This document shows positions 1-59,400 of a DNA stretch of 64,000 nucleotides, piece by piece. Position numbers and translations under genes: made by a program. This stretch comes from a virus. Location: IMG/VR virus record IMGVR_UViG_3300025120_000001, positions 1-64,000 of that record. The stretch is one strand, 5' to 3'. The notes beneath the pieces were generated by a model. The model searched no databases. It saw only the letters and a program-made list of their open reading frames with translations, and was not told where the DNA came from. The stretch's first letter is position 1. Every line of letters starts with the position of its first letter.

Positions 1-60
1 ACATTAACCAGTGATGGGCGGAGTCTAACCAGCTTAGCAACAGAAATAGGTTTAATTTAA
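1..60 (+). CDS. 3' end of a gene truncated by the window (…TLTSDGRSLTSLATEIGLI*)
   Basis: Frame 1 is open from base 1 to TAA at 58-60. Confidence 0.45.
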   Translation, partial: TLTSDGRSLTSLATEIGLI

Positions 61-354
61 TTAAATGTGTGTTGCATTATTAATGTGACACCTCATTTGC
101 CATAATCATTGGGTTGGCATCCAATAAAATATTAGTTAGTCCATAGTATATATATGGCTAACACAAGACATGGGTACCTTGAGCAAAGAGTTAATTACTT
201 GAAGCAAGACAGGATGGTTAACTCTGTGTAGTTGCAAATACATTAGAGGGGTTAGGAGGTAATTGTCCTAGCCTTTCTACCCATACGCATTATCTATTGT
301 CTTCTCTCTCTCTATAGAGTTTATATAATAGTAACCCGGAATCAAGAATTTATA

Positions 355-529
355 CAACTGCATTAAGGAGCCTTAACACGGATAGTTCTCTTTAAAAATC
401 CTCTCTGTAACGCATACCTCTAAGCTCATAGTACTATTACACAATAATAGGAACTGAGAGTAACAGAGATTGCCAGGTAAGAAACTTATTATATCTATGG
501 GAAACCAATTTATAATCTACGTGCAGTTA
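355..529 (+). ncRNA. Putative multi-stem structured RNA (unassigned)
   Basis: Closing helix AACTGCA(356-362)/TGCAGTT(522-528) encloses hairpins TTAAGG-AG-CCTTAA, CTCTG..CAGAG, TAAG-AAA-CTTA and TGG-GAAA-CCA; no ORF. Confidence 0.35.
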
Positions 530-809
530 AAATATTACACGGGCACAGGATCCTTGAGGATTGATCACCTCATCCATTCTGTGCTTATCCAATTGGGGGA
601 TGTTCCCCTTTTATAAGAAACCCATAATCGTAATTGATCACTACGTATATGGTCACAGGGACAAGATGCAGCATAGTCTCCTCGTTAGTTGAAAGAAGAT
701 ACATTGAATTCAGTCTTTACTAACTACCTGTGTAACACTAAGGTGAGAATCCTTGGAACGCTTAACATTGCCGTGGCTTATGTCTACCCTTGAGGTAGCA
801 TTAGTGTCT

Positions 810-1566
810 AAAGAAATGTGGTCGCCATCAGACCGTTAAGATAAACCAGTAATGGTATAAAATGGGAAGGACTTGTAGTTAATCTTCCTGTGATGCATGT
901 AATATGCATTTCATAGAATGGCAATACAATATTTGTATTACGGCAGCGGTAAATCCCTCGGGTCCGTGAGTAGTACAAAGAGCATGACAGGCATTGCTCT
1001 TGAGACTGAAAGGTCAATAAGAACTGTATTGGGTAATGGTAGTATGGTGTTGTCGCACTTGAAGCTGTTATTAAATTGAATACACTATGCGCTAGGAGAA
1101 ATCCTGTGTATAAGTATGATGTTAGCAAGTAGCTTTGACAAGCAAAAGCAGGCGGGAGTTATAATCTAAAGTTCTCAAAAGGAACCATGGTTATAAAAAC
1201 TTCAAGCGTCTCTCGTTATTTACCTGTGCTATTTTAACTTAAACAAGAAAGAAAAAAAAGCAAAATTAGTTTGGAGACTATTGTGATGGCACTAACGCCA
1301 ACAATGTTCTTATCCTTCTGTAATATGGAGGCATGGATAGCTCGCAAGGCTTACCATGAAGGAATCCAGTAGTATCTGTAGTGAGGGGACATCCTCTTTA
1401 GCTCGTAAGGCATGCGGTATGAAAGTGAACTTATGACCACTTTAGTAATGATGGCGGACATCTTAATCCGTGAACATGTGCAGTACAGACCAGAAATGGA
1501 CTGTGTGAGATAATTGGGGAAACCTGTATTAATCTGTACGTAAAGAGTCAAGCTCTCAGCTCTTTT
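810..1566 (+). ncRNA. GOLLD-like giant structured ncRNA (~750 nt)
   Basis: No credible ORF; richer in GC than the flanks; dense hairpins with GNRA loops (ACCA-GTAA-TGGT, GACT-GAAA-GGTC, CTC-GCAA-GG, CTC-GTAA-GG, CCA-GAAA-TGG); an A/U linker at ~1230-1262 splits two domains; 5' GGTCG..GACCGTTAAGATAAACC and 3' GGGGAAACC..TAATC..CTCTCAGC resemble GOLLD ends as I recall them. Confidence 0.7.
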
Positions 1567-1659
1567 ATTTTATTCACTTAATCTAACCATTATGAACATT
1601 TTATTAATCATCGGATTGTCTTCATTATTAGTATGGAGTCAATCAAAAATCAACCAATT

Positions 1660-1809
1660 ATGAAATCTATTATTTATTATGTATGGTTTACCTTATTACT
1701 AGGGACCTTCACTGCATTGTGTGGTGGTGGAGAGTTAATGGCCTTTGTACTTTGTTATTGTTTTTGGGGTTGTATGTTAGCACCTATGTTACCTGGAGAA
1801 ACGGCATGA
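1660..1809 (+). CDS. Small membrane protein (49 aa, not in ORF track)
   Basis: MKSIIYYVWFTLLLG…; ATGA overlaps at both ends; two hydrophobic segments. Confidence 0.5.
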   Translation: MKSIIYYVWFTLLLGTFTALCGGGELMAFVLCYCFWGCMLAPMLPGETA

Positions 1810-9366: not shown

Positions 9367-9638
9367 GTATAACAACAGAAGAATTAGAAGAATTATTAAA
9401 CGAAAGTGAGTTGGGTGAACAAGCAAAGCTCATATTATACAATGATGACGTGAACACATTTGATCACGTCATTAATTGTTTACAAATTTACTGTGATCAT
9501 TCTGAAATTCAAGCAGAACAGTGTGCTACAATAGTGCATCATAACGGTAAATGTTGTATAAAAAAAGGTTCTAAGTTTAAAATAAACATGGTAAATACAA
9601 TGTTAAACCTTAATAAGTTAAATTCAGAAGTAGAATAA
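9363..9638 (+). CDS. clpS: ClpS N-degron adaptor (Bacteroidota type)
   Basis: LILYNDDVNTFDHVINCL…QAEQCATIVHHNGKC. Confidence 0.85.
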   Translation: MSITTEELEELLNESELGEQAKLILYNDDVNTFDHVINCLQIYCDHSEIQAEQCATIVHHNGKCCIKKGSKFKINMVNTMLNLNKLNSEVE

Positions 9639-9868
9639 TGGGAAGAATGAAAGAACTATACATTCAAAGTTTAGAAGAAGAATATGGAGATGATTTATCT
9701 GGATATTTTAATGAACAAAGAGTGTATGAAGGATTTTCAGTATCAGATATAACATGTCCTAATTGCATGAAAGAAAAGTTAGCTCAAGACAGTGAAACTG
9801 ATCTAAAATGTTTTAAATGTGGGCATGAATTTATCAAGATAGGTGAGAAAACAATAAAATTTAAATAA
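9638..9868 (+). CDS. Zn-ribbon protein
   Basis: CPNC…CFKCG. Confidence 0.7.
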   Translation: MGRMKELYIQSLEEEYGDDLSGYFNEQRVYEGFSVSDITCPNCMKEKLAQDSETDLKCFKCGHEFIKIGEKTIKFK

Positions 9869-41590: not shown

Positions 41591-41664
41591 ACACCCATAG
41601 CTCAGATGGATAGAGCACCTGCCTTCTAAGCAGGCGGTCTTAGGTTCGAATCCTAATGGGTGTA
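41591..41664 (+). tRNA. tRNA-Arg (anticodon TCT), CCA not encoded
   Basis: ACACCCA/TGGGTGT acceptor stem, D-arm GCTC..GAGC, anticodon arm CCTGC-CTTCTAA-GCAGG, GGTTCGAATCC T-arm. Confidence 0.95.
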
Positions 41665-41685
41665 CAATACTAGCTACAGTATATT

Positions 41686-41717
41686 AAAATTGGGGAGTGA
41701 TATTACTCCCCTTTTTT
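41686..41717. terminator. Bidirectional terminator between convergent units
   Basis: GGGGAGT-GATATT-ACTCCCC with a T-tract downstream and an A-rich stretch upstream. Confidence 0.7.
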
Positions 41718-44700
41718 ATTTAATAAAGAAGTTCTTCATATCAAGATAATTCTGCCATTTTTTAATACTATATAAAATAGGAATAGTATCCTGCCATTGT
41801 TTGGCTAATTTAAGCATTCCTTTTCTTCTACCTCTTTGGTATACTACTGCAGAGTTTTCGTAAAATGAATTTCTATCTTGTGTAATAGCATAGAAAGGAG
41901 TTTCTATTAATGAAAACATAGCTTCCCCAAGCTCACCCATTGTTCTTGTAGATGCAATTGGAGATTTTATCATTTGCATTTGTTCTTTAGATCCTAAAAA
42001 AGGGACAAATAGTATAAGTTCTTTTAATGTTCTGTCTGCTTGATACATTAAAATGTTTTCCATTCTCTTCTCAAGATCTCCTTCATCTCCATCATCCGCC
42101 CACATACTTTGCATTACTTCTTTTATGAGAACTGTTAGCAGCATGATTCCTATTTCACCCATAGACCTATAAAAGCCTTGCAATCTATTAAGAGCTCTTT
42201 CGTTGTCTTGGTAATCTCCATTTTCTAAATAGCCATTATCTTCTAAGAATCCGGCTGCATATTCATTAAATTTAAAATTACCTTTAGCAAGCTGTCTTCT
42301 AGTATGACCCATGAAGCCCCACCAAGATTTATACCTACCTTCCATCCAACCTAGATTTTCATCATAGTATTCTTTATCAAATCTTGCTCTCATTGCTGGA
42401 GCAATCCATTTGTGAAACTGAGCTGCAAGTTTACCAACAGTACTGGATTGCATAACCATTCTATCTTCATAGGCATAGTTACCGTGAATTTGTTTGTTTA
42501 CTTCACGCATTTGATTTCTAAGTTGATATCTAAACTGATCATTGTACTCACCCATATCTCTAAGAACTTCAGGATTGCCTTCTTCATTTAAGTTTTTATT
42601 ATCAACTTTAACTACAGTCCAATTACCTTCTTTCATTTTTAGATCATGAGAATCAGCACTAAAATCATGAGCATCATACAAAGATAATATCTCACCTGTA
42701 TCTTCATTTCTAACCATTGTATCTATCACCATGGCCATACCTACTTTAGTTTGAACATTCCACTCAGCGGCATCTTGTAAAGTATAACCCCATTCCATAA
42801 ATCTTTTAAAGTAAGACTTCCCTACTCTATCAATATCAGATCCTGACTCTCGTATTTCAGCATCACTATCCATCATTCTATATAGTTCTACAAAAGCTTC
42901 ATATTTACTATTCGCTTGCTCAGGGTCATAGCCACCTTTAGGTCCACCTAGACCTTTTGCAGATGAGGCTAATCTTTTAATCATGTCTGGTATACCTCTC
43001 TTGTTATACTCTAAAGATGATCTTAAGTAAGCATCCTTAGAATAAAATCTACCACCTATTGCTTCTATGTTATCATTGATACGGCCCAGGACGTAATTAT
43101 TAAAGTTACCAAATGGGTTAAATGCAACATAAGATAAAGATGATAACTGTATAAGACCATCTGAAACTTTTTCAAAAAAGCCTTTAGTCATTTGATCGTT
43201 GTCATAGTAAACCATATTCATCCATTTCTTAGCTCTTCTAAGGATATTAGAGTCGGTTCCTTTTATTGTTGCCTTTTCTTCAAAGCCTAATTTACTTTTA
43301 ACAACTTGTTTGATTTTTCCATCAGGAGTTTTATATTGACGTCTTTCAATTTGCTTTAGCATTGCTTTCATTGTATCATCAACAGATCCCATTGTTTCAT
43401 AATGTTCTGCCATTGATGCAAACTTGAGCAATGCATTTCCCATATCTTTATTTAACTCTCCTTTGGCCGGTTTACTTTCTTCAGCCATTCTTAAACCTTT
43501 AAGCTCAGCTATTTGCTTCTTATACGGATCAAGTTTTATTTTACCATCTGATCTATTTTGATTAAGCTCTTCAATTTTTGCATCAATTCCTTTTAAGACT
43601 TCATCATTTCTAGTTGAACCTGTATAAAATATTGGCATACTATCTACAATTTGGCCCTTCTCATCTGCAAATACAGTTCTCTGCTGCATTGTAGTTGTAA
43701 AAAGATTTTTAATACCACGGGTTGTTTTAGCAAACAGTTTAGTTCCTAAATTTGGTTTTGCTTTTAGATCTTGAAAGATTTTACCTCTCATTACAGGAAC
43801 TTTACCAAGCATTTGACCTCGTTGACTTGCTGGTATTTTATTTAAAAGATCATCCTCAAATAATTTTTTAAACATTAAATAAAACTCTTTTTTAGCTTGG
43901 CCAAGTGCTGTATCATCATTCATGATTGCTTCATACTTCTCACTTCTCAAACTATTACTAATCACATTTCCGGCATCATCTCTAAGAGATTGTTCTACTC
44001 TTACTTCTCTAAATTCAGGTCTTGGGTATGGTGATACATTATATATGGTTTTAACTTCTCCTGTAAATTGACCATTCTTACCTCTTTTAGCAACCGTTTT
44101 GCCATCTTGTTCTAAGCTTGTTCTAAAGTATTTAGCCATAAATCTATCATACGCTCTATCACTTATATCACTTTTTCTTTTCCAATAACCGTGCTTACCT
44201 CCAGCAACAAAGTATTGATACTTGGATCTTTCAGCTTTGAACTCTTCTGTATATTTATGATAACTTCCATTTGCGGGTTGATCATTTAAGCCTATAGTTT
44301 CAGCTCTAAAAAAATCTGCAAACTTTTCCTTAGCTTCAGCTAACTTAATGTTATACTCTATATCTTCTAAACTTGCCGAAGCTCTATCTGATATATCTCT
44401 AAATTCTTTTGGTTGTCCAGTAGAATCATACAAAGCATCTCTTAATTCTTGCATTCTAGCATAATACTGAGGTCCTATTTCCTGAACATACATTCCTGTA
44501 AACTCACCATCTTTGTCAAACTCTAACATAAAATCATACAAATCTTGAGGATCTTTGATACCTGCAAGTTTTTGTAATTTAGAAGCTGAACTCTGTATTA
44601 TTCTTTCCCTATCTTGTATCTTATCAAGAAGTTCTTGTTTCTTAGATTTATAAATTTTATCCATCAATGCTAACAAAGTATCTTTGGATGTAGCAAGATC

Positions 44701-47496
44701 CCTTGTTTGTAATTCTATTACGTCTATGTCTTCCCCAAACTTCATTAAATCATCTAACATATCTTCAGTAAAGTTTCTAGATGAAGTATTTTTAACAATG
44801 GTTCTTACATAATTTTCAATAGCGTTATCTATAATACCGGGAGTATAGTTATCAAAACTGCCAACACCTACTAAATCATTTGCCTGTATTTGTAGATTTA
44901 AAACTAAACTCTTTTGAGTTGCGTTTAATTCTGCAGAATCTTGAAGTTTATATAAACCCTGGAATGTTTCCATGAATCCATCAAAATTTAACACATATGA
45001 TATATATTCTGGTTTAGCAAAGTTTTTTGGATCTTCTACGTATGTTTTAAATTCATTTATTTGTCTAAGAGCATCGCGCATTAAACTGCTAAATATTCTA
45101 GATCTAGCACTTGGTCCTGATCCTAATGCAATATTAATAGCACTAATTGAATTAAGAATTTGCTCTTCAAGTTGGGCTGTAGTTTGATGTCTTCCTAAAT
45201 AAACTTGTTTATTAAGTTGATTTAAAGCTTCTTGCTTTTTGATAAGCCCAATTTGATAAGTTCTTAATGCCTGAGTTATAATAGAAAACTCAGGTGCAAC
45301 TTCAATATTTTCAGGCTGACGCTCTTCACCATCTAGAAGTTCTTCTAAAGTAGCTTCTTGAATAGACTCTGGAGATTGATTCATTGTTTCATCAATTTCT
45401 TCTTTTAAAGTCTGATCAATATTAAGTGGAATAAGCGCATCTACATAAGGTTGATTTTGACCAGGAGGATGTGTCTGTTCTCCTTCATAAGTAAACTCAC
45501 CTGTAAAACTTTGATTTTCAGCTTTTCCTTTTATACCTACTTTTACATGTATAGTACTAACAGCATCTTTATCAATGGACATGGTGTATCCCATGTTCTG
45601 CAACATTCTTTTATACATGTTTACCTGAAGACTATGCTTTTGTCTTTTTGATAATTTGCCTTTTCCGTTTTTACCTTTCTTTAATAAACCTTTTTCAACA
45701 AGCTCACTATTTTCTTCTACATCCCACTGTTTATCATACATCAGTTTTTTGCCCGCAATACCTTGATAATCATTAACTCCATCTTTAGAAGTTTTAAGAT
45801 CTACTATTTTTAATGTACCATCTGGTTTCACAATTAATAAATCTATTGTACCTGCTGTACCTGTAGCTTCATCGTAAACTGTTACCTGCGGTATTGCAAC
45901 ACTACCATCTCTTAATAACCCGGAGTCTTTATTATACAAGGCATCGTCTATATCATCAAATGCTTGACCTGCTTGTTCTTCTGTAAGAATTACTTGCCCT
46001 CCAACTTCTTCTGCATCTTGCTTAACTCTTTCAAAAGCTTCTTGTTTAGTTAAGCCTGCTGCTAATGCTTCTGTAATGCTATCAAAATTATTACCAAGGG
46101 CCATATTAATTGCATACTTCTCATCCATCTCTGCTTGCTTATCCGGACTCTTCTTTCCGCCAAATCTTTCAGTAGTGCTTTTCCAAGATCTCTCTATATC
46201 ATTTATGTCTTTATATGTATGTGTCTTTTGGTCTAGGACCAGCATTGGACTTTTTCTATTATATGCAGAAGCAGCAAGTATGCCTATATCATTTGGCGAA
46301 TGTACAGCCCCATGAAACAGTTGTCTTACTATTTCTTTTTGTACAGCATTTCCTGAGTTTGTTGCAGAATCATATGCTATCTTTGCGCCACTTGTAAGGT
46401 TATATCTAACTTTTCTATCAGCAACCCTATCTATTTTAAATTCAATACCTGATGTATTCAATAGTCTTGCTATACCACTTAGCGTAGCATTCTGTGATAT
46501 TGATCTAGCAGAAAATGCTTTTCCTGTTAAGTATTCAGATAAATTTTTAATTATATCCATAAACCAATTCAGAAATTCTTTTACTGCAGTCTTGAATGGT
46601 CTAGTTTCATTTTCAGTAAACTCTTTATTAAAGTGTCTAGATAATGCCTGGGTTACTAATTCAAGTTGTCTATGCTTTTCTGAAAATCCTCTACGGTTAT
46701 TATATGCATCATTTATTTCTTGAGATAACTCAGGAAAACTTTTCCTTGCCTCTTTTAATAATTTACCAAATAGTTCGTTATTATCTATATAAACACTATC
46801 TATAAAAGGATGGAGTATTTCTTCTATTGCTACATCATCTGTAACACGTCCTTCTATTAAAACAGCTTTGCCGTCTACGTAAAAAGATCTTATATCTTTA
46901 AATGGGACCTTTGATTTTTGTTCCATTGGTAAATCATCATATGCTTTTTTAGCATCTGCTGGGGATAACATAACAACAGAAAGTTGAGGAAACATTCTCA
47001 TCAAATGCCTCACTACTTCCCTAGAATGTGGTGTATTAAAATTCCTTGCTGACGGTATTACATCGCTTGGTGTAAATACATTTCGTTCTATATCTATAAC
47101 TAGACCTTTACCTTTACTCCTTCTAGATATGGCTTCTTTAGGTATATGATTTACTCTTAGGTAATTGTATAACCTATCTAAATTATACTTTCTTATAGCA
47201 GGATCATACGTTCTATTACGTGATGACACAACATAATAGTCTCCCTTAAACTTACTTATTATACCCAATCTAGATAAGTTTGCATATAATGCTCCTGTAA
47301 ATTCTTGAGTCTTTAAGTTATTGTAAACTTTCTGATCTTTTTTATACTGCATTACTTCAGACACTGTAGGTAAAGCATCCGTACTGTTTGCTTTTTGCCA
47401 TTTATTCATTAAGTAATTTGCTTCAATTGGTGAACCCAATGCTTCCGCAACATTTTTAAATTCAGCAGTACTTCTATTTATACATGTTTGTGCCAT
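41716..47496 (-). CDS. Large virion-delivered protein (1926 aa) with PD-(D/E)XK nuclease and degenerate zincin domain
   Basis: AGTIDLL..DG..KIVDLKT…HSLQVNMY; EEILH; TAATG-coupled to the RNAP gene. Confidence 0.75.
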   Translation of the reverse strand: MAQTCINRSTAEFKNVAEALGSPIEANYLMNKWQKANSTDALPTVSEVMQYKKDQKVYNNLKTQEFTGALYANLSRLGIISKFKGDYYVVSSRNRTYDPAIRKYNLDRLYNYLRVNHIPKEAISRRSKGKGLVIDIERNVFTPSDVIPSARNFNTPHSREVVRHLMRMFPQLSVVMLSPADAKKAYDDLPMEQKSKVPFKDIRSFYVDGKAVLIEGRVTDDVAIEEILHPFIDSVYIDNNELFGKLLKEARKSFPELSQEINDAYNNRRGFSEKHRQLELVTQALSRHFNKEFTENETRPFKTAVKEFLNWFMDIIKNLSEYLTGKAFSARSISQNATLSGIARLLNTSGIEFKIDRVADRKVRYNLTSGAKIAYDSATNSGNAVQKEIVRQLFHGAVHSPNDIGILAASAYNRKSPMLVLDQKTHTYKDINDIERSWKSTTERFGGKKSPDKQAEMDEKYAINMALGNNFDSITEALAAGLTKQEAFERVKQDAEEVGGQVILTEEQAGQAFDDIDDALYNKDSGLLRDGSVAIPQVTVYDEATGTAGTIDLLIVKPDGTLKIVDLKTSKDGVNDYQGIAGKKLMYDKQWDVEENSELVEKGLLKKGKNGKGKLSKRQKHSLQVNMYKRMLQNMGYTMSIDKDAVSTIHVKVGIKGKAENQSFTGEFTYEGEQTHPPGQNQPYVDALIPLNIDQTLKEEIDETMNQSPESIQEATLEELLDGEERQPENIEVAPEFSIITQALRTYQIGLIKKQEALNQLNKQVYLGRHQTTAQLEEQILNSISAINIALGSGPSARSRIFSSLMRDALRQINEFKTYVEDPKNFAKPEYISYVLNFDGFMETFQGLYKLQDSAELNATQKSLVLNLQIQANDLVGVGSFDNYTPGIIDNAIENYVRTIVKNTSSRNFTEDMLDDLMKFGEDIDVIELQTRDLATSKDTLLALMDKIYKSKKQELLDKIQDRERIIQSSASKLQKLAGIKDPQDLYDFMLEFDKDGEFTGMYVQEIGPQYYARMQELRDALYDSTGQPKEFRDISDRASASLEDIEYNIKLAEAKEKFADFFRAETIGLNDQPANGSYHKYTEEFKAERSKYQYFVAGGKHGYWKRKSDISDRAYDRFMAKYFRTSLEQDGKTVAKRGKNGQFTGEVKTIYNVSPYPRPEFREVRVEQSLRDDAGNVISNSLRSEKYEAIMNDDTALGQAKKEFYLMFKKLFEDDLLNKIPASQRGQMLGKVPVMRGKIFQDLKAKPNLGTKLFAKTTRGIKNLFTTTMQQRTVFADEKGQIVDSMPIFYTGSTRNDEVLKGIDAKIEELNQNRSDGKIKLDPYKKQIAELKGLRMAEESKPAKGELNKDMGNALLKFASMAEHYETMGSVDDTMKAMLKQIERRQYKTPDGKIKQVVKSKLGFEEKATIKGTDSNILRRAKKWMNMVYYDNDQMTKGFFEKVSDGLIQLSSLSYVAFNPFGNFNNYVLGRINDNIEAIGGRFYSKDAYLRSSLEYNKRGIPDMIKRLASSAKGLGGPKGGYDPEQANSKYEAFVELYRMMDSDAEIRESGSDIDRVGKSYFKRFMEWGYTLQDAAEWNVQTKVGMAMVIDTMVRNEDTGEILSLYDAHDFSADSHDLKMKEGNWTVVKVDNKNLNEEGNPEVLRDMGEYNDQFRYQLRNQMREVNKQIHGNYAYEDRMVMQSSTVGKLAAQFHKWIAPAMRARFDKEYYDENLGWMEGRYKSWWGFMGHTRRQLAKGNFKFNEYAAGFLEDNGYLENGDYQDNERALNRLQGFYRSMGEIGIMLLTVLIKEVMQSMWADDGDEGDLEKRMENILMYQADRTLKELILFVPFLGSKEQMQMIKSPIASTRTMGELGEAMFSLIETPFYAITQDRNSFYENSAVVYQRGRRKGMLKLAKQWQDTIPILYSIKKWQNYLDMKNFFIK

Positions 47497-50400
47497 TAAA
47501 AACAAGATTTTAGTTGTTCAATAAATTCTTCCATTGTACTTGATGTTTTTTCAAACTCTTTCATTAGAGCATCTATACTACTATAGTCTCTGTTAAAAGC
47601 TTCACCAACTTTCTTCAAGCTCATCAAGTTGCCCATTGATAGTGTTGATACATATGCTTCAAGCTTTTCTTTATTATCAATTGTATCAAGGCCTTCATTT
47701 GCATTTTCTCCAGACTCTACAGGATTACCATCTGAATCAATGCTAAAGGTATCTAAATCTTCCGCATCATCCAAGGCATCTGCTAAATCATTCTCAGTAG
47801 TTACTTCATTGCCATCATTATCTATTGAAAATGAATCCGCTTCCTCTGACTCATTGACTTGATCAGCAATGCTTGTACCGCCAATCTTTATATCTTTTCC
47901 GTCTATTTCAATATCAGAAGATTCATTGGATATTTTTTCTTGATAATTTTGTATTATATCTTTAGCTACAGGTGTATTTAACCAACCAGCTTTATCAAGC
48001 TTATCTTTAAATATAAAATTATCATATGCTTTATCTAACATTGCATCTAAAGTTGAATCTGTTCCATATTCATATTCTACTGCATCATATACTACACTAG
48101 GATCTCTACTTGATCTTCCTGAACCATCATCTGAACTATCTTCTCCTGGGTTAGCCTCTTTAACTGTTTCTTTTACTGAGTTATTTGTAGGTCTTTCTCC
48201 AAATATAAAACCAACAGGAGTTTGCGCAACTGATCCCATGATATCAACTTCTATGTATTCAGCAAAAGTACCTGTGGCAATATCTTGAGATAATCCTTCT
48301 CCTATATTACCATACTCTGGACCAGCATGTCTAACTAATTGGAAATATCTTGTTTGACCATCTACCATGAATCCCATAACTTGCGGAAACTCAGCAATAG
48401 ATCTCTCTCCTTTTCCTTCATAAACAGTTCTTAGCTTAAATCCTTTCTTTACTTGCGTTACATTTGATCCATATTTCTTTCCTTTATCTTTAGCTATTTT
48501 AGCAAACTTTCTAGTTTCAAACTCATCATTCTTTTCAAACTTTGGTCTAGCTGAAATACCCTTATATAAATCTACTGTGATAGTAGCTCTGTCAAATTGA
48601 TCATTTAAATATAAAGCTTGATTCTTTGCTTTTCTATTTACTTCTTTTCCTTCTTTCTTTACTTGTTTATCTGTAAGTCCAACAGCTTGGTATCCAAAAT
48701 TGTCTTCCATTTTTTGAAGAAGGTCATCGTAAAGCTCTACACTAAATTCCTGGAGTCCCATTAATTCAGCATTATCTATTTCATTCTGAATCATTACACC
48801 TCCACTAAAGCTATCTATATTTTGCTTTATCTTTTCAATCTGTTGTTGTATCTCATTAGATGCTGTATTTATTTCAGCACCCGTGTAGTAGCTTTCTTTA
48901 TTATTAGATAAATCTTTTTTAATAACTATGCTGATAACATTATTAGCACCCCTAACAGCTTTACTATTTGAGGTACCTGTTCCGGATTCATTATCAAATA
49001 TAACAAATAGTTTATCCGGGTTGCTTTCTACATAGTCTAAAGTAAATGGTTTTCTAGCTTGATTAACTAATGACTTACCGTTAAATACAGCACTAGAAGA
49101 CATTGACTTTTTCTTTAAAAGTTTTGCCGTTTTAGGATGTAATCCATATTCTCTTATAAAGTTTAATTTTAGATCTCTAAATGACATTCCAAAGTTGGCC
49201 ATCATTTGAGCATCATCCATTGCAGCAAATGCTTGAGATGTACTTGGTAAAGTAGACATATAATCAGCAAACATTTCCGGGTTTATGGAAGCTATTATAC
49301 TTCTATACACAGGTTGCAATCCATCTTTCACTATCATATAGTTTAAGACTTTCATTGATAACGCTCTAGTTAATGGATCCGCATATAACTCTTGAAATCC
49401 ATTTTGCACATCCAGCTTTTGAGAGTCATTTAAAGGAGTAAGTGTATTTGCAGTAAGCATGCTAATACCAGTCTTGTTACCTTCAGACGTAGCAGATTCA
49501 GGTCTTATAAACCCATCTAAAAAGAAGTTGTACTTGTCTCCGTTCAATTCTTTTATTTCGTCATATGTATCTACAATATCTTTAGTTCCCTCTTCTGGAT
49601 ATAATAAAGTGTTTGTTGGGATTCCTAAAACAGACATTGGATTATTATTTAAATAATTTAAATAACCTTGCAATGTTATATAAGAAAGCATATCATTATT
49701 TATTACCGCTCTCTCATCTTTGGTAAATCTTTTATAGTTTGTGTCAAGTGATGAAAATATATTTTTAAAACCAGCGCTTTCATCTAAAAATACTTTTGGT
49801 AATATGCTGCCTACAAATTCATCATGTATATCTAACATTCCTCTTTGCCATCTATCTGCGGAAAATACAGGTCTTAAATCAAATATAGGCATCTCATTTG
49901 GTGGTAACATATCAAATTCAGCATCTGTTAAATCTATACCAAGGTCTTCTCTAGCTTTAGAAACTTTGTATACATCGTTTGTATCTTTACCAAATCCTTT
50001 TGCTAAATTAAGGAGATCCCCCATTGGTCTTAAGAAACCTGAAACATCAAATGCTTTTACAAATTGATCTAGAATGGCATAATCTCTAAGTACTTGTTCT
50101 CTAGTTATAGCTTCAACTCCATTGTCGGCAGCTCTATCAACTTTATCTTCAAGTTCTTCTTCTGATTTATATTTCAGCATAGGATCCTGAGATCCATCAA
50201 TTAAAGAAGCTTGACTAACACCAGTAGCTCCAAAATCTTCTTCTGTTGCTAAATCATAAGTTGCAGCCGCTGCTTTAAGACTATCCATCTTATCTTCAAT
50301 GAATTCCTTAACATCAAATTCAAAAGCCGGAGCTCTTTTTTCTAGTTGATACGCTTCTCTTATTGTTGGATGATTCATCATTGCTACAGATGTTCTAATA

Positions 50401-53400
50401 GGTACACCCATTGCACTCATTGTTGTAACAATAGCTAATGCATTTCTACTAAGACCAAGTTTAGCGGCAAGTCTTTCTTTAGCGTTATCCGTCATTGCCG
50501 TAATTAACGCAGATATAATATATTGTTTTCTTCTACCTAACGTACCATCTTCTTTTAACTCTTTAGATCTATCTACTGTTTTTCCATTTACCTTGTCTTC
50601 ATTAAATAGACCATTGTAAACTTGACCTCCAATATTTAGTTCATAGCCTCCACCTGGAATCATTTTAATGCCTTCTTCTTGAATAAGACTTAGATATAAG
50701 TTTGGTAGTACCGCAGCTCCAATTGATTTTGCACCCTCTTTATTGTTTGCAAAACCTTTCCATTTACCAAATAAATTATTAGCATCAATACCATCCTCAC
50801 TTAACATCTCAGCTAGCTGAGGAACTTCTCCACTTATCCAGCTCCAGGTATCTTTTAATATTTCCATATCAGCAGGCTCATAAGAAATAGCAGATTGATC
50901 ACCGTCTCTTGTAGTATTTCCAGCATGTCCCATCATAGAATATTTGAAATCTAATATCTCATTATTATATCCTGATGAAAATGGATATCTACCTGTTTTT
51001 TTATGATAGCTTTTAAAAGCTTTCTCATTCATTGGCAAGTTTAGCATTCTCAATGCTTTTATAGCATTAGGAGAAAACCCTAATTTTCTTGCTGCTTCTA
51101 GATCTTTATCTGATAGTGAATTTTTTGTTCTATCATTTGCTTTTGCCGCAGCTTCAGCAAAAGTACTTCCTGATTTTTGAACAGCTTTATTAACCCATTT
51201 AAGATAACTTTCAAAGTCATTAGTGTATTCCTTAATAACCTTTTGCATTTTAGGTTTTGTATAAGGCTTACCTTTAACTCTAAGTTTATCTTTTATTATT
51301 GAACGGCTTGGTTGTGTACCTCTTATATAGATTCTTTTATTATCACCTCTCTTGTGAGGAATTTCATAATAAGTAGCTCCATCTTTAGTTGTACCAAGAG
51401 CTTCTTGTATTTCTCCAAAGTTTTTACCTCTACCCCCGTCTTTAATTAAGTTTAATTGTTCTTGAGCTTGTGCTAGATTATCTACAACCCAAATATCAAC
51501 AGGATCTCCCGTAGCATCAACTTCTGTTTTATGCTCATACATATCAACAACAACATCATAAATTTTAGTTTTTTCTTTTGTTGCTTCTAATGTTGTATAG
51601 CCATCCTTCATTTGGATGTACAACTTATCAATATCAAAATCGGCCCCTGACACCTCAACCAGTTCTCTTGCTGAAACAATAGTTGAACCATAAAATACCG
51701 GTAGAAAATCTACAACTTTTATATTTACTGTTGAATGATTATCCTGAGATGGAATACGTATACCAAACATTTTAGATAAAACTTCAGGTATTGATTTACT
51801 AGGAACTTGATCATACATTGTATATGCATCCTTTGAATGAACCGGCATCATAGATTCTGTATACTTTATACCTGTATACTCGCCATCTTTATACTCTTTC
51901 ATATCAGGTCTAAGTCTATCTTTTACTATAATAAACTCACCCTCCTTCATATTTTTGAGTCTTTCATTAAGACTATCAAACTTATCTTGATTGTCATCAG
52001 ATAAATCTAAAACTTCATTTCCGTATTTCTGAACATCATCTATAGAATAATTATTCTGAAAATCATCAGTCCTTATAATCTCTTGTCTATCTATATAAGA
52101 TTTTCCGTCTACTTGTTCTGTGCTATATATCTTTCTATATTGCTTGAACCCATAATCAGAAAGCAATGCTGCTGCTGTACCTGGTAGCTTTTCAGACATT
52201 ACGCCTTTACTAAAATAGCTTAAGAATAGTTGTTTAAACTTTTGGGCTACTATAGGTGTATCCTGAGCAAAATCAAAATTTGGATTACCTTCTTCATCAA
52301 AGCTGAAGAACTCCAATAACTGAGCAGATGAAGCGCTTGCCTTTAATGCTGTTTGTGCATACTTAAGGAATGATATAAGATCCGGACTAAGTTTTTTAGC
52401 GTCTATAGATTTATGCAACTCATCCATTGCATAGTCAGATTCCATATCAAAATTAAGATTTCTTTTATCTAAATACTTCTGTTTAAGTCTTGAATCTACA
52501 GCTCTATTATAAGCTAGCTTAATAGCGCCAATAGTTGTAAGCTCACCATTAAGTATAACTTCTGTATTATCACTTTGCTCTCCTGTTATAAGAGTTTTGA
52601 TTTGAGTAGGATCAATGATCTCAGATTTATTTGATGGATTTAATACTTGAAGACCCATGTAATTAGCATCCAATTCCATAACTTGATCATCACCAAAACT
52701 TTCATCTGTTTCACTAGTTGATTCAAAGTCTAATCTTCTAGCCATGTAGCTACCTGTATTTGCAGGGCCCAATAACTTAGATTCTTTTTGAGTTATTGTA
52801 TTACCTGAACCAACAAGAGCATCAATTGGTGTTATGTTTTTCTTCATCATCTTTAGTGCAGATAATGGTGCAACCATTGCTACAGTATCTATACCTTTAT
52901 CTAACTGATCTTGCTCATATTGTTCCATCTTAACCCTCATATTATGAAGATCTTCTCTACCGGGCTTAGCTACCCAGTTACCGTTTTTATCTTTATAAGA
53001 AGTTAATGCTTTAGTAAGAGGTACAACTGAAAATTTATCAAAGACTTTACCATCACCATAAACAAGCTTTTTAGAGTTAAGCATTTCTTGTTTCTTAACG
53101 GCTCCTGCTGCACCAAATATTTCATCAACAGATATATCTGCGCCATCTTCTATTTTATTTAAAAGAGCTGATTGTGTTTCTGTTAATTTACCAAACCCAA
53201 ACCACATGTATCTAAATGCTTTAAGACTCATCCAGTTTTGGGCATCTGCTTGTTCTATATCTTCACCTGTATGTATTGATGTACCTATCGGATCTGTTGT
53301 AGCAAACATTGATATTTTTTGTAATGGATTTAGAATACCATGTTGAGGTGATGCAATTCTACTAGCCGCACTATAGTATGCGGCATTTTGCATCTTAGCT

Positions 53401-56400
53401 CTTTTAACTGCATCAACGGCATCTTTAAGAGTTAAAGCCTGATCTCCTAAAAGAACATCATTCATTGAAGAAGTATTAATCCAATCATTAATGAATATCT
53501 GTTTAGTATTGTAAGTCCTGTTTCCAGTTAAATTTAACTTTTCATTAGCTCTTTGAAACTCCGCTTCACTACCTGTAGAGTTTTCATTTCTTTGAACACC
53601 TTGACTTAAAAACTTTGGTAACTCTAATATTGGTTTACCATTTTCATCTATTCTGTAAAACTCACTATTAATATCTCTGTTAAATTGAACAAACTCTTGA
53701 TCAATTCTTGAACGCATATATGCTCTAAGTTGTTTTTTGTCTTTACCTATTTTACTGAGGGCGCTATCTAACGTTAACACTTCCCTTTGATCTGCAGGTA
53801 ATGCTGCATTTTCTCTTATTAATTTTTCTAATTCAGCCGCATAATTAAAGGTTCTAACATTTAATAAATCTCGTATAGCTGTAGCTATATCATAATCTTC
53901 TTGTTCAGCTGCTTGCTTCTCTCTTTCTACTAATTGTTCATTATCTAATTCTAAAATGTTTTCATCAACAAGTTCATATACATAAAATTCTTTATTACCT
54001 TCAATAAAGTCTTTCATCTTGTCTGATTCTACCCAGTATGTATTATTACCAACTGTTGCTTCTTTTATGTGAGTTGTTGTTTTATTATCAGATATAGCGT
54101 CTCCTAATTTATCATATATGTTTGTCATTGTCAGCTGACTAACTTTTCTAGATCCTACTAGTTTTACTCTGTTAAACGTTGCTTTATCTCCTTTCTTCTT
54201 TACAAACTTCTTTTTCTTTTTTATTTCCTTGACTTCACCTATTGACATTTCTAGGTTAGTTGATTCACCTTCAGCAAAGAACCCCATAGATGTTGCCCCT
54301 TGTTCATCTTTGATAAATATTTTTTGAGTTCCAGCTCTAAGTCTAGCAACGGTTGCTTCAGTATCTAGCAATCTTCCAGTTTCAAGCTGCGTAGAAGGGC
54401 TATCTTTTGGACTTAATACAAGCTTGTTGTTAGTAAATTTAAAAGCTCTATTGTATCCAATAATCTTACCGCTCTTGTCTCTTATTTCTACTTGTCTATT
54501 CTGACCATCTTTAGTAGCATTATACCCAGGATGAAGCTCTTCAGTTCTGGTAGCAGGATCTAACTCTCTTTGAATCCTTGCAAATTCCCCTTCAATATTT
54601 TTTTCATATGCATCTAATGCTGCATCAGTAACTTCAGCATCACCTTGAGCATTAGTCTTAACCGCTTGTATGATAGGTAATTCAACCATATCCCCTGTGT
54701 TAGATGCTTCTATTACTCTTAGTAATACAGGAGCCAATGCTATCATTTCATCTTGACCTTCTGGGATAACCCCTCTTTTAATTTTACCGGACTTAGGATT
54801 AACCCCTGCCGTATAAGCACTTAATAAAGCATGTAAAATTTGTTTAGGGTTAAAGTCACCGTAGTTTACACCTTCTTCATTTCTATCATATTTTTCAACA
54901 ACCCCACCATCTCCGTCTACTTCAATTCCTCTACTAGCCTTACTACCTGCTATTCTTGTTACTTTCAATAAACCTTCTCTAGACATTTGCCTAAATGCCG
55001 GGTCATTTAATAAATAATTACTAGCAAGGTATGGATCTTTGTCAATGAGATCTTGAAGAGCCTTAGCGTTATTATCTACATCATTTAATTGAGCTATTCT
55101 TTTTAAATGGAATGTGGGTAATTGATGAGCATAAACTAAATCTCCAGCTGGGTTTTTAAAGACCGAAGAACCAACTGTTTCATCAAACATTGAGTTACCT
55201 AAACCAAGTTTACGCAATCTATTGTAAACACCTTCTTCTCCAGTTTGAGACATTAGATTTTCATTTGCATCAAATTGTTCTTTCATGTAAACAATATCAT
55301 CCCACTCAATGCTTATTACATCTGTTCTAGAATTTAAAATTTGTTGTTGCCATTTTGTTGGGCCTAATCTTTTCTTTCCTTTAGCTGCTGTTTCTTTTTG
55401 CAACTTAGTAGGTTGTACTATATTACCTGCAATGCTATATTGTATGTAATCAGGGTGTAGCTTAATACCCATAGTTTTAGATAACACCTCTGAAACTTTT
55501 ACAGCAACTTCAGCTAATTTTTTATTTGATATATAACCAATTGGATCTTTTGGATTTAAGTAATCTAATAATACATCAAGCTGGTCTGATGCGTCATCTT
55601 TCAATGCCGGATCTGATAAATACAATCTTCTTCTATGTTTATATTCAGTTTCCCATTTTTCAACTTGAGTATGTGCATCATCTCTATTAGCAGCAGAGTA
55701 AGCTAAAGTTTGACCGTCTGCTGTATTAGTGTGTAAGAATAAATAATCAACTTTAAAGTTTTCAAAACCTTTAAGTAGCGCCTGAAATAATAAATTGTCA
55801 TTAGTTTCTCCTGGAATTATTCCATTTTCTAATTGATCTTCCCATACTAAACCTAAATCATTAAATAGTTTTTCTTGAACTGCTTTAGTTTGAGGATTAT
55901 TTTGAGAGAACATATAGATTTGCTGTAATATTCTTACGGGATCTGATGTACCACTAGCAGCTTTTAAGAATCCTGAATATGCAGAAGCAAAATCTACAGG
56001 AATAATAATTTTTATTCTATCATCCGGATCCGCCTCTGGGTTAATATATTCATTGCCAAATTCATCTTTTTCAGATAGTGTAGTTGTAGCTATATACTTT
56101 CTTAGGAATGATGATAATGATCTAGTACCTCCTACTTGAGACGCATCTTTTCCATACTGCTCAGTAGTTCTAAGACCATACTCCATTTCGTTCTCCATGT
56201 CAAGATCATCCATCATCTCTAACTTAATGTCATATAGCTCAAGTTCTTGAACAACTGAATCTACTATATCTTTTCTAAAGTTTTCAAATGCATTTGTAAT
56301 ATTTGACAAGTTTAACAATTGCTGCGTTGATACATTAGCATACTGAGCATTATCAATATTGTATAAAGCTTTAAATGCATCTATAGATTCCTCAACTGTA

Positions 56401-59400
56401 TCTACAATGTTAAAATTAGGATCTTCATTAAACATTTCTAAATCAACAACCCTTGCTGTTATAGCTGAAACTATTCCTCTACCTTGTTTATTAGGTATTG
56501 TTTTATATACTTCTTTACCTTTTGCTGGCGTTGATGAACTATATCTAAGCAGTTTACTTGCATCCAGCGTAATACCCATAGTAGCTGAATCTGTAAAAGG
56601 ATTAGATACTGCTTGACTATTCTTAAACTTTCCTGCACTGATATCTTTATATAAAGCTTGAAGTTGTGTAGCGTTATACTTTCCAAGAACGTTTCTGATC
56701 CACTCAAGTATTTTATTAAATAAAGACTTGATGAAAGAATCTGTTTTTGTTTTAGCTGGACTTTGTTTGAATATTTCAAACTGATCTGCCATATACTCTT
56801 CCAAGTACTCTTTCTCAAGACTTTCTTGACTCCAGTTTCTATATTTATTGATATCACCATTTCTTAATTTTTCTAGCTCTACTTTTAAGCTCTTACCTTC
56901 TGATCTTAGTTTAGATAATACTTCTGTTTTGGCCAGCTTGTAGTAAACATTTTGTTGATCTGAATTTAATAACATTCTAAATACAGCATGGAATGCTTCA
57001 TGGTATGCGTACTTAGATGTTGCACCTACGTATAACTTACCGTTTATTTTTTCATTACCTGCTATTCTACTCATAGCCATAACAAAAGCACCTACTCTTT
57101 CTCCTCCAGATTTCATATTGTCTCCTAGAGTTCTTATATCTTCTATAGAAATAAAGTCTGGGAGATTAGATGAAGCCCAAGATAAAAATTCATCTATATG
57201 TTTTAGATCTTCAAGATTTAAATTGTCTGATATTTTGTTTGCTGTATTACCTAAATCAGATTCTACTTTAGCTAATTGTTTTTGAAGTTTTATAATTTCT
57301 TTATCACTCAATAGCTTTTTCATGATCTCGCTATTCTTTAGTTTACCTACTGAGTCTTTTCTTATTTTTACTTGTCTTACTTCTATCTTAGCTAGTAAGT
57401 TATTTCTTTCTGCTATTAAAGCCGCTCTATCCTTTTGAACAGCGCCTGTATCTGAAGTAGCTGCATTAGATGTAGGATTATCTACATTGTACTTTGTTTT
57501 AGATAGCAATCTAATAGATGTTCCCATTGGAGAACCTAGTATCTCCAACTCTCTAATTGTTAAAGCCTTTTCTCCTTGTTCAGAAAGTTTTTGCGCTAAG
57601 TATTCTCTTTGATCTTTACTAAGACCCTGAAAGTCATTTGATTTTTGTTTATCATATTCTTCTTGACTTAGCTCTTCAATACTTGCAATCTCAGCAGCTG
57701 GGCCATCCGAAGCAGTTGGACCATCTTCAGTTTCAGCTTCTTCACTTGGACTAGTGTTACCATCAGCGCTTGTTGATCTACCTGTGGTAGTCATAGATAT
57801 TATAGCTGTATTTTTTATGTCTGAAACTTGTACCCCTTTAATGTTTGCTATTAATTTAGAAGCCCCTCTTACATTTGGAGATATTTGTGTAGTAACAGAC
57901 TGCTCAATTTCTTCTGTAGTAACATTCTTATCAAATGAAATTTTAAATGCATCCTTTTTAAGCTGACCATTTTTTTGAAGATTTTCAAAGAATACTTTTT
58001 TCTTTGCAAATGCTTTATCAGTAACATCTATATTACTTATGTAATCATTATAGTTAGTTATTAAAGCTTCTATAAATTTTTCTTTATTATCAAACTCAGC
58101 ATACTCTTGCACTTGTTCAGCTGACATTATAATATTATGAGACTGCTTTAATTTTCTATCATAAGCTCTAATAAATACTGAACCATTAGCTCCTACATTA
58201 ACTTCAAATGTATAGCCAGGTTTACTCGCCATATAAAATCCAGGTGAATCCTGTACTTCTCCAGCATTAACTTCTTGATTAAATATAGAATTAAACTTTA
58301 GATCTTTAGTTTGCTTTGTCTTCTTACCTTTCTTTACCTCTACCTCTTGTACATTTTCTTTTAATGTTTCCGCAGATCTTTTTATTAAAGTCTCCGCAAG
58401 TGCTGCCGTTCCTTCTGTACTCAAAGAGTCTGACTTGATTGGAAAATATGAATATACACCAGAAGAACTTTTTACAACCATCACATATCTAGAAGCATTA
58501 GATGCACCGGAATAAAGATTTGGATTTTGAGCATTCATTTCCGCTATAATCTTTTTCTTTACTTTAGATCCTTCTCCTCTTTCAGCATTAGTAATAAATC
58601 TAGTTGATACAGTACCGTCCTTACCTTTTTTGTTTTCTAAAACTACTGTTACACCATCAACACCTTGAACATTAAGATCTAATACCGGTTTATCTTTCTT
58701 GTCAAACACTAGTTCACCAGGTGTAGTAAAAAAGTTTACACCACCAATATCTTCTAAAGTTGTTACTAGAGATTCTGAGTCTCCCATTTTTTCTGCAATA
58801 GAGTTCATTATTTGAAACTGTATTGCAAAGTTTCTTTGTATATCGGAAGCTGCAGTTTCAGCAGGTCCTGAATAGTTAAACAAATCTTTTATTTGATCTT
58901 TAGTTATAGACAAAGGATTAATAGCCTGGCCATTTGCATCTGTTAATATCACATCCCCATTTGGTATATACCCAACCATTCCAGTTGCTTTTCCTTCCGC
59001 ATCCATAGCAATAGGTATCCCAGCTTCTTCAAGTTTTGCATTTATTCTTTTTGATGTTGAGCTTTTTAATTTTAATCCAATGTTATATGGTGACTTAGTT
59101 GTCCTAATAAATGGATTTTTTTCTTTATCCTCAAACTTAAGATAGCCCCCTTCTCTATCAAGTATTGCACCACCTTGTTCGTTTTTAGTAACTATAACTT
59201 CTAGCTCATTGAGTTCTTTCTCAGTTAGGTTTTTAAGTATAAAGTCATATCTTCTTCTACCTATCTCTAGAACTTCTTGGTAATTAGTTGTTGCATCGTT
59301 TCTATGTGGTATAGCAGCTGTTGCTTCATCCACTCTTAACTTACTTGCATTTGCTGGTAATTTTGCTTTACCTGCATTAAATACTTCAGGGGTAAACCTT

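Follow-up and report, generated by a model that had tools for sequence, protein, structure and literature searches.

What is the stretch of about 750 nucleotides (nt), free of credible genes, that heads the plus-strand module of the phage genome IMGVR_UViG_3300025120_000001? The window, by which we mean the whole stretch of DNA analysed here, comprises the first 64 kb of this IMG/VR virus record, a complete phage genome of 112,134 bp, and a first-pass annotation had proposed a GOLLD-like giant RNA at its positions 810-1566. GOLLD RNAs are among the largest noncoding RNAs of bacteria and phages and form RNA-only cages that exceed the ribosome in size; that of Streptococcus agalactiae, 700 nt long, is a 12-mer (PDB 9L0R). 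Thinking about them has mostly turned on their frequent association with transfer RNA (tRNA) genes. Based on our observations, positions ~819-1565 of the window (+ strand) very probably hold a divergent member of the GOLLD family, a large structured phage RNA on a branch or subfamily of its own.

On what does the link to GOLLD rest? At Rfam gathering thresholds the region yields no match. A covariance-model search and an analysis of covariation among homologues had been suggested with the first-pass annotation as checks. In the former, the Rfam GOLLD model RF02032, run on window 1-1800, aligns from end to end (model positions 1-416 of 416) with 1154-1562 on the + strand at 55.7 bits (E 2.3e-13); across the whole genome the E value is 3.4e-15, and 0/14 control genomes were matched. 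The motifs appear in the order UCAAAAG loop, AAAAGCAAAA, CUUAU, CUCGCAAGG, GUGUG and terminal CUCAG hairpin. Rfam sets the gathering score for GOLLD at 150 bits, which is an annotation threshold and no biological criterion; because 55.7 bits falls below it, the RNA is overlooked by standard annotation, and the threshold excludes the window's GOLLD branch. Kretsch et al. gathered GOLLDs at E < 1e-5 (PMC12286853). In the same set-up, canonical GOLLD loci used as a positive control reach 256-283 bits, compared with 56-64 bits in the window subfamily; the window's relatives score 56-107 bits with RF02032. The canonical, Lactobacillales-type GOLLDs on which the Rfam seed is based share the 3' domain architecture (P14-P27 equivalents) and the association with phages and prophages. 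They are found in bacterial chromosomes as well as prophages, usually beside tRNA genes, whereas the window subfamily occurs in phage and metagenome contigs only.

The relationship also holds in the reverse direction. A covariance model of 137 positions, R1, was built from the subfamily's 3' core alone (window 1302-1436). It matches five other loci with GOLLD motifs at 73-94 bits (E 1e-10 to 1e-14), which we refer to as intermediates. Four of the five, on large phage contigs (L015, L044, L067 and L012), were scored with Rfam and gave 80-97 bits; three adjoin large tRNA arrays, of up to ~20 tRNAs, and the 5' halves of these intermediates cannot be aligned to the window subfamily by nhmmer. With filters off, the best R1 match falls within the Rfam match in 5/5 canonical GOLLD loci, offset from the Rfam start by 146-150 nt, against 148 nt in the window. 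As both models score the intermediates and R1 stays in register in all five canonical loci, the sequences form a graded series from canonical GOLLD through the intermediates to the window subfamily.

Covariation provides independent grounds for a conserved structure. Two IMG/VR motif scans and one metagenome-contig scan, followed by nhmmer, recovered 97 full-length homologues in viral and metagenome contigs. These were collapsed at >=97% identity to 52 non-redundant sequences, the nearest 83% identical to the window, aligned as A2. RNAalifold predicts 145-166 pairs on this alignment. In the 145-pair version 128/145 pairs are maintained through double changes, with a covariation term of -41.6 kcal/mol. 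In the 166-pair consensus of 36 helices 93.5% of cells are paired, against 70.1% in shuffled alignments and 35-46% when partners are slid, and the covariation score is 0.677 (shuffled 0.229, slid 0.09-0.13). Both-sided changes occur at 142/166 pairs, none of 500 shuffles attains any observed measure, and the window sequence itself makes 162 of the 166 pairs. Helices 21-36, the 3' half, are 89-100% paired and almost all display double changes. Because G:U cells far exceed A:C cells (1325 vs 113 over the 52 homologues), the structure is restricted to the + strand. The thermodynamic z-score, -1.7 for the + strand and -0.8 for the - strand, is weak and not significant alone.

The same alignment bears on whether the region encodes small proteins. 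Open frames of 53-106 amino acids (aa) are present; frames within 810-1566 span 33-106 aa, the longest being one of 106 aa on the - strand (808-1128) and one of 53 aa on the + strand, and a coding function might be sought in the former. Yet in the 52 homologues the longest open stretch measures 69 aa at the median, compared with 70 aa for shuffled sequences, the strand and frame are not conserved, and the substitutions show compensatory base-pairing. No + strand open reading frame (ORF) of >=60 aa lies in window 1-1632. A coding role is thus of negligible probability, and the earlier statement that the block holds no credible ORF agrees with these data. Its G+C content is 39.5%, against 30.7% in the downstream genes.

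How is the RNA built? As the Rfam model does not cover the 5' half, window 819-1153 was compared with the published construct (PMC12286853, Supplementary Table 4) of env-38, a GOLLD of 833 nt from a marine metagenome whose structure by electron cryomicroscopy (cryo-EM) is a 14-mer cage (PDB 9MEE; Kretsch et al. 2025, PMC12286853). The elements of the window RNA, all on the + strand, are as follows.

819-1153 (+): GOLLD 5' domain of about 12 helices, based on covariation and on the env-38 motif order
819-835 (+): P1 hairpin, 5' domain
846-855 (+): GNRA hairpin CCA-GUAA-UGG, preceded by AUAAA and followed by UAUAAAA, 5' domain
987-991 (+): hairpin loop ACAGG, pairs with linker CCUGU by the cognate-complementarity test
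1004-1015 (+): GAAA hairpin, between UUGAG and CAAUAAGA, 5' domain
1087-1111 (+): AGAAAU-loop hairpin, 5' domain
1154-1203 (+): P14-type hairpin, the first Rfam GOLLD element, with loop UCAAAAG at 1175-1181, from Rfam and covariation
1200-1207 (+): 5' strand of the linker-closing helix, pairs with 1269-1276
1208-1268 (+): A/U-rich variable linker (J13/15 equivalent), 74% A+U, of varying length among homologues
1223-1227 (+): linker motif CCUGU
1256-1265 (+): GOLLD signature AAAAGCAAAA in the linker
1269-1276 (+): 3' strand of the linker-closing helix, GUUUGGAG, pairs with 1200-1207
1277-1565 (+): GOLLD 3' domain core, from the Rfam alignment and covariation, with R1 on 1302-1436
1343-1347 (+): loop of the CUCGCAAGG hairpin, 3' domain core
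1542-1565 (+): terminal hairpin with loop UCAAGCUCUCAG, 3' domain core, covarying (helix 36)
1566-1575 (+): U-rich tail 3' of the terminal hairpin

The picture drawn earlier, of many short helices with GNRA loops arranged in two structured halves around an A/U linker, is reproduced by the 36 covariation-supported helices, with a 5' domain at ~819-1153, a 3' domain at 1154-1565 and the linker at 1208-1268. GNRA-type loops include those at 849 (GUAA), 1008 (GAAA), 1344 (GCAA), 1405 (GUAA) and 1493 (GAAA). In the P14-type hairpin the inner stem is 99.2% paired and covaries, the middle stem is likewise supported, and the UCAAAAG loop is invariant in the 52 sequences. The 8-bp helix that closes the linker (1200-1207/1269-1276) is 93.9% paired with double changes at 8/8 pairs, and in the pseudoknot of the Rfam model (1277-1285 with 1438-1446) the paired fraction is 84.4% and 9/9 pairs have double changes. 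The U-rich tail is likely to represent the 3' end of the RNA or a weak intrinsic terminator.

A further contact ties the linker to the 5' domain. The loop ACAGG (987-991) is complementary to the linker motif CCUGU (1223-1227), which gives a covarying pairing of 4-6 bp. Divergent members carry compensatory versions of loop and linker (GGUAA/UUACC, CGAG/CUCG, GUCA/UGAC, AGAAC/GUUCU, AGCCG/CGGCU, UGUUGG/UCAACA and CAGGU/ACCUG; at least seven variants in all). Complementarity is higher for cognate than for non-cognate loop-linker pairs, with 0/5000 permutations attaining the observed mean; seven other loop-segment combinations display no cognate excess (p = 0.23-0.99). The pairing may form within one chain or between chains. 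Among the seven combinations was a kissing pair resembling contact B4 of env-38 (H10 loop with the segment before P14), which was rejected for want of a cognate excess. The linker is a site of additional variation. A small extra hairpin (GCCA-UUAGAU-UGGC), absent from the window, occurs there in many close relatives. In one relative (L094) an insertion at A2 columns ~640-700 contains a T-arm-like motif, AGGG-UUCGACU-CCCU. No tRNA is predicted there by ARAGORN, and the insertion might be a tRNA-like module, incomplete or permuted, such as has been described in GOLLD linkers.

How far does the likeness to env-38 extend? The two RNAs are similar in size and share the two-domain layout, beginning with a P1 hairpin followed by AUAAA. 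There follow a GNRA-capped hairpin (UAC-GAAA-GUA in env-38, CCA-GUAA-UGG in the window RNA), a motif just past it (GAUAAAG and UAUAAAA, respectively), two hairpins of which one is GUAA-looped, the loop motif GACAG, a central block of UUGAG, GNRA hairpin and CAAUAAGAA, and a GAAA-loop hairpin. Beyond the 5' domain the L14 loop UCAAAAG and the A/U linker are common to both, as are AAAGCAAAA, the CUCGCAAGG hairpin, the terminal CUCAG hairpin and the pseudoknot. In the env-38 14-mer, bridge B1 is made by the adenosines that end the first GNRA loop, B3 by the GNRA loop preceding CAAUAAGAA and B6 by the L14 adenosines (PMC12286853); the equivalent loops are invariant or nearly so in our 52 sequences. 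The two also differ. The env-38 RNA lies downstream of tRNA-Met, whereas no tRNA occurs within 40 kb of the window RNA. The covarying linker-closing helix and the pairing of a 5'-domain loop with the linker belong to the window RNA, and neither is among the contacts listed for env-38, whose linker is disordered in the structure (PMC12286853). The window's subclade has extra 5' helices compared with env-38, and the B4-type kissing pair is unsupported in the window RNA. When IMG/VR was scanned for loci like env-38, using 26 nt of the construct as the motif, 0 matches resulted.

These comparisons allow us to weigh an independent family of large ornate RNAs that came to look like GOLLD by convergence or by sharing short motifs. 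Such an origin would fit an Rfam score well below the family threshold, the lack of nhmmer sequence similarity to Lactobacillales-type GOLLD, the distinct linker-closing helix and loop-linker pairing, and the absence of a tRNA association. It would not predict that the full model aligns end to end (E 2e-13) with UCAAAAG, AAAGCAAAA, CUCGCAAGG and the terminal CUCAG in order, that the pseudoknot is retained, that intermediates score well with both models and reciprocal matches are in register in 5/5 cases, or that the motifs of the 5' domain match those of env-38. We regard it as highly improbable. ROOL, which assembles into 8-mer or 6-mer cages, is likewise a large, ornate, cage-forming phage RNA with an internal variable linker; its sequence and secondary structure are unrelated to those of the window RNA, and the Rfam ROOL model finds no match in window 1-1800 even at E up to 10. 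The full-length sub-threshold match, the covarying helices and pseudoknot, the reciprocal model and the env-38 order of 5' motifs all favour the GOLLD-like identity first proposed.

What does the genomic setting add? The 127-bp 'terminal repeat' of the record is an overlap of the circular assembly, so base 1 is arbitrary. A gene-free stretch of ~1.86 kb spans this junction, from genome position 111780 to window position 1632, with the RNA locus as its last 750 nt and the first downstream ORF beginning at 1633. Searches with blastn against related contigs find homology at window 816-1573 (L060, 77% identity) and 739-1575 (L048, 74%); the former lies very near the 810-1566 originally delimited. 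The same program in distant mode, with window 1-1700 against 50,697 GenBank phages, returned zero matches. A signature motif of the 5' domain is present in 38 viral and 102 metagenome contigs; among the genomes of 185,579 species, none contains it. The RNA keeps to a single syntenic position, heading the + strand module, in dozens of loci. Upstream stand ORFs of 312 and 116 aa (- strand) and one of 98 aa (+ strand), with terminase and portal 5-8 kb beyond; downstream are small ORFs, then helicase and DNA polymerase. This arrangement persists where terminase identity falls to 22-26%. The earlier placement at the head of an early region is upheld as regards the start of a syntenic + strand module; the word 'early' is a tentative suggestion, which we consider somewhat less probable than its opposite.

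Adjacency to tRNA genes, or a tRNA inside the linker, is typical of GOLLD without being obligatory. The neighbourhood of the RNA is poor in tRNAs. Only 17/97 loci have one within 1.5 kb, and the sole tRNA of the 64-kb window, at 41591-41665, lies ~40 kb away, consistent with the original remark that no tRNA adjoins the RNA there. Given this scarcity, its role does not seem tied to tRNA genes in cis. In a few relatives a tRNA abuts the RNA. On the downstream side, tRNA-His is 4 nt away in L111 and L206 and a tRNA of unassigned type is 6 nt away in L123; in L153, tRNA-Met lies 5 nt upstream. Such proximity suggests that in those phages the ends of the RNA are cut by tRNA-processing enzymes. Just downstream of the window RNA lies a small basic ORF (1806-1949, + strand; MTLKKVTVTQGEIQDAMKHRVYKNKKKY...), whose homologue in L060-type contigs is found on the upstream side instead (L060:~9600-9700). 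As this ORF switches side, the genes around the RNA have evidently been shuffled and the RNA kept. In another contig a match to the Pistol ribozyme (L047:1434-1498, + strand; 42.1 bits vs a gathering score of 34.5) lies ~390 nt downstream of the GOLLD-like RNA (306-1047).

Could the element instead be a long structured 5' leader or other cis element of the + strand operon, or a packaging or replication signal that acts as DNA, with no free-standing RNA? Its place at the head of the + strand module, within a ~1.86-kb noncoding stretch that also has conserved islands, would suit such a role; the terminal hairpin is A-U rich and a weak terminator at best, and a separate promoter for the first ORF was not found. 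However, GOLLD, to which the element is homologous, is a discrete RNA, and the asymmetry between G:U and A:C implies selection on RNA, not on DNA. Moreover, the terminal hairpin and U-tract are conserved with covariation (helix 36), a tRNA abuts the element within 4-6 nt in several relatives, and L060-type loci rearrange the flanking small genes yet keep the RNA. We judge a leader or DNA signal improbable and a discrete transcript likely.

Several points weigh against the assignment to GOLLD and the behaviour we attach to it. The RF02032 score is far under the gathering threshold, and many relatives are dropped by Infernal filters in larger searches. The R1 matches to canonical GOLLDs are individually marginal (~21 bits, E ~0.01 each). 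The outermost P14 stem of the Rfam model (GGGAGUU with AACUUC) is 78.8% paired with scant covariation and competes with the linker-closing helix, which it overlaps at 1200-1203. The likeness of the 5' domain to env-38 was judged by eye on short motifs, without a statistical alignment, and the cognate-complementarity test does not support the B4-like kissing contact. The case for a cage is one of analogy. Finally, a promoter for the RNA was not identified: sites found by a sigma-70-type scan are no more numerous than in shuffles, and no repeated motif suggestive of a phage promoter was found in the DNA upstream of it.

How might the RNA work? Its homology to the family, its structure, its strand and its synteny are matters of observation, and on them we propose the following model for a GOLLD-family RNA. 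The molecule has the two-domain layout of the family: the 5' domain is variable, the P14 hairpin carries an A-rich loop, and past the A/U linker the conserved, pseudoknotted 3' domain closes with a hairpin and a U-tract. Transcription where the + strand (replication or early) module starts would probably yield it as a discrete RNA, which would act in trans during infection. Homology with the solved GOLLD RNAs, a 14-mer in env-38 and a 12-mer in S. agalactiae, makes it most likely that the molecule self-assembles into an RNA-only cage with the linker inside. Here the linker is closed by the 8-bp helix and tied to the 5'-domain loop by the 4-6-bp pairing. Multimerisation is suggested by the conservation of the loops that form bridges B1, B3 and B6 in env-38; on this analogy we lean moderately towards cage formation.

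What are the implications for GOLLD biology? The analysis adds a well-sampled, phage-only GOLLD subfamily (97 full-length sequences), mostly without nearby tRNAs, which offers an independent context for testing functional ideas on these RNAs. The covariation data cover both domains and include a new long-range pairing to the linker, a segment invisible in the cryo-EM maps. The analysis also shows that the Rfam GOLLD threshold and model under-detect aquatic variants. We speculate, as a less likely possibility, that the RNA belongs to a distinct GOLLD lineage: a fixed syntenic gene of an aquatic crAss-like clade, uncoupled from tRNAs, with a linker remodelled by the closing helix and the pairing to the 5' domain and with an extra 5' module of ~80-200 nt, maybe with altered cage stoichiometry or gating, and maybe transcribed first in the early or replication module. 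Transcription ahead of the rest of that module would point to a role in host takeover rather than to tRNA biology.

Where does the RNA begin? In the window's subclade, structure reaches beyond the homology at 816-1573, to ~738 and perhaps ~622, so the block first delimited may be short at its 5' end. The features concerned, again on the + strand, are these.

595-616 (+): terminator-like hairpin GGGGGA-UGU-UCCCC with a U-run; conservation with relatives restarts just 3' of it
622-737 (+): subclade-specific structured block in 17 loci, a hairpin with a UGAUCAC loop and an inner long hairpin
654-659/727-732 (+): long-range helix CACAGG/CCUGUG of the block 622-737
738-818 (+): 5' extension common to 33 loci
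within 738-818 (+): extension hairpins CUAAGG-UGAGAAU-CCUUGG and CUACC-CUUGA-GGUAG, with compensatory changes
764-768/816-820 (+): helix of the extension block 738-818 that abuts P1

For the RNA of this subclade a start at ~738 or ~622 is therefore probable. Its length may reach ~950 nt; alternatively, 622-737 may belong to a small RNA of its own. Double changes occur at 22/63 pairs of the extension, and because most of them stem from one split between two subclades, support for it is limited. The hairpin at 595-616 probably ends an upstream + strand unit.

Which phage carries this RNA? Its genes include terminase, portal, capsid, family B DNA polymerase and ribonucleotide reductase. The best matches of the terminase, at ~27% identity, are FpV21/FPSV and crAss001-group, Cellulophaga, Azobacteroides and IAS phages, and a virion protein of 2149 aa is ~25% identical to the csAssE-Sib 'muzzle protein' and to virion proteins of phi4:1/phi17:2 and Lbo-JY46. 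By these protein comparisons the phage is crAss-like in the broad sense only, and since the relationship is so distant no Crassvirales family of the International Committee on Taxonomy of Viruses can be assigned; the crAss-like label proposed at first holds to that extent. Two giant ORFs, at 47496-63596 (- strand, 5366 aa) and 41716-47505 (- strand, 1929 aa), have no PHROG match, and no RNA polymerase family was detected in them; they are candidates for the crAss-type block of ejected proteins or virion RNA polymerase, the enzyme that the first-pass annotation suggested might make the RNA. In seven cultured or deposited relatives (FpV21, phi14:2, crAss001, Lbo-JY46, csAssE-Sib, phi4:1 and phi17:2) neither the GOLLD model nor the subfamily's 5' motif (<=3 mismatches) finds a match, and among the papers searched none mentions GOLLD jointly with crAss-like phages. 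Cellulophaga phage phi14:2 (L223, NC_021806.1) has a gene-free stretch of ~700 nt at 1279-1983, where two earlier ORF annotations were removed in 2020; the GOLLD model does not match it, nor does any other Rfam family to a meaningful degree.

The noncoding DNA of ~1 kb upstream of the RNA is itself conserved in part. Islands at window 17-163, 289-342 and 529-594 and at genome 111780-112007 are 85-97% identical in three relatives (L097, L101 and L143), a conservation that exceeds that of the neighbouring genes; possible roles for them are in packaging or replication, as promoters or as small RNAs. The DNA between them is rich in insertions and deletions, as illustrated by 351-527, which is replaced in strain L143, elsewhere 96.5% identical to the window. 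That strain, which like the near-identical contig L181 comes from Tara Oceans samples, also resembles the window closely across the RNA (96.6%) and was collapsed with it in the set of 52; a swapped GOLLD cassette in it is thereby ruled out. Elsewhere in the genome, away from the RNA, the motif ATAATATACAAAAA recurs at four intergenic sites (38569, 93454, 95051 and 110898) and is a candidate phage promoter or terminator element.

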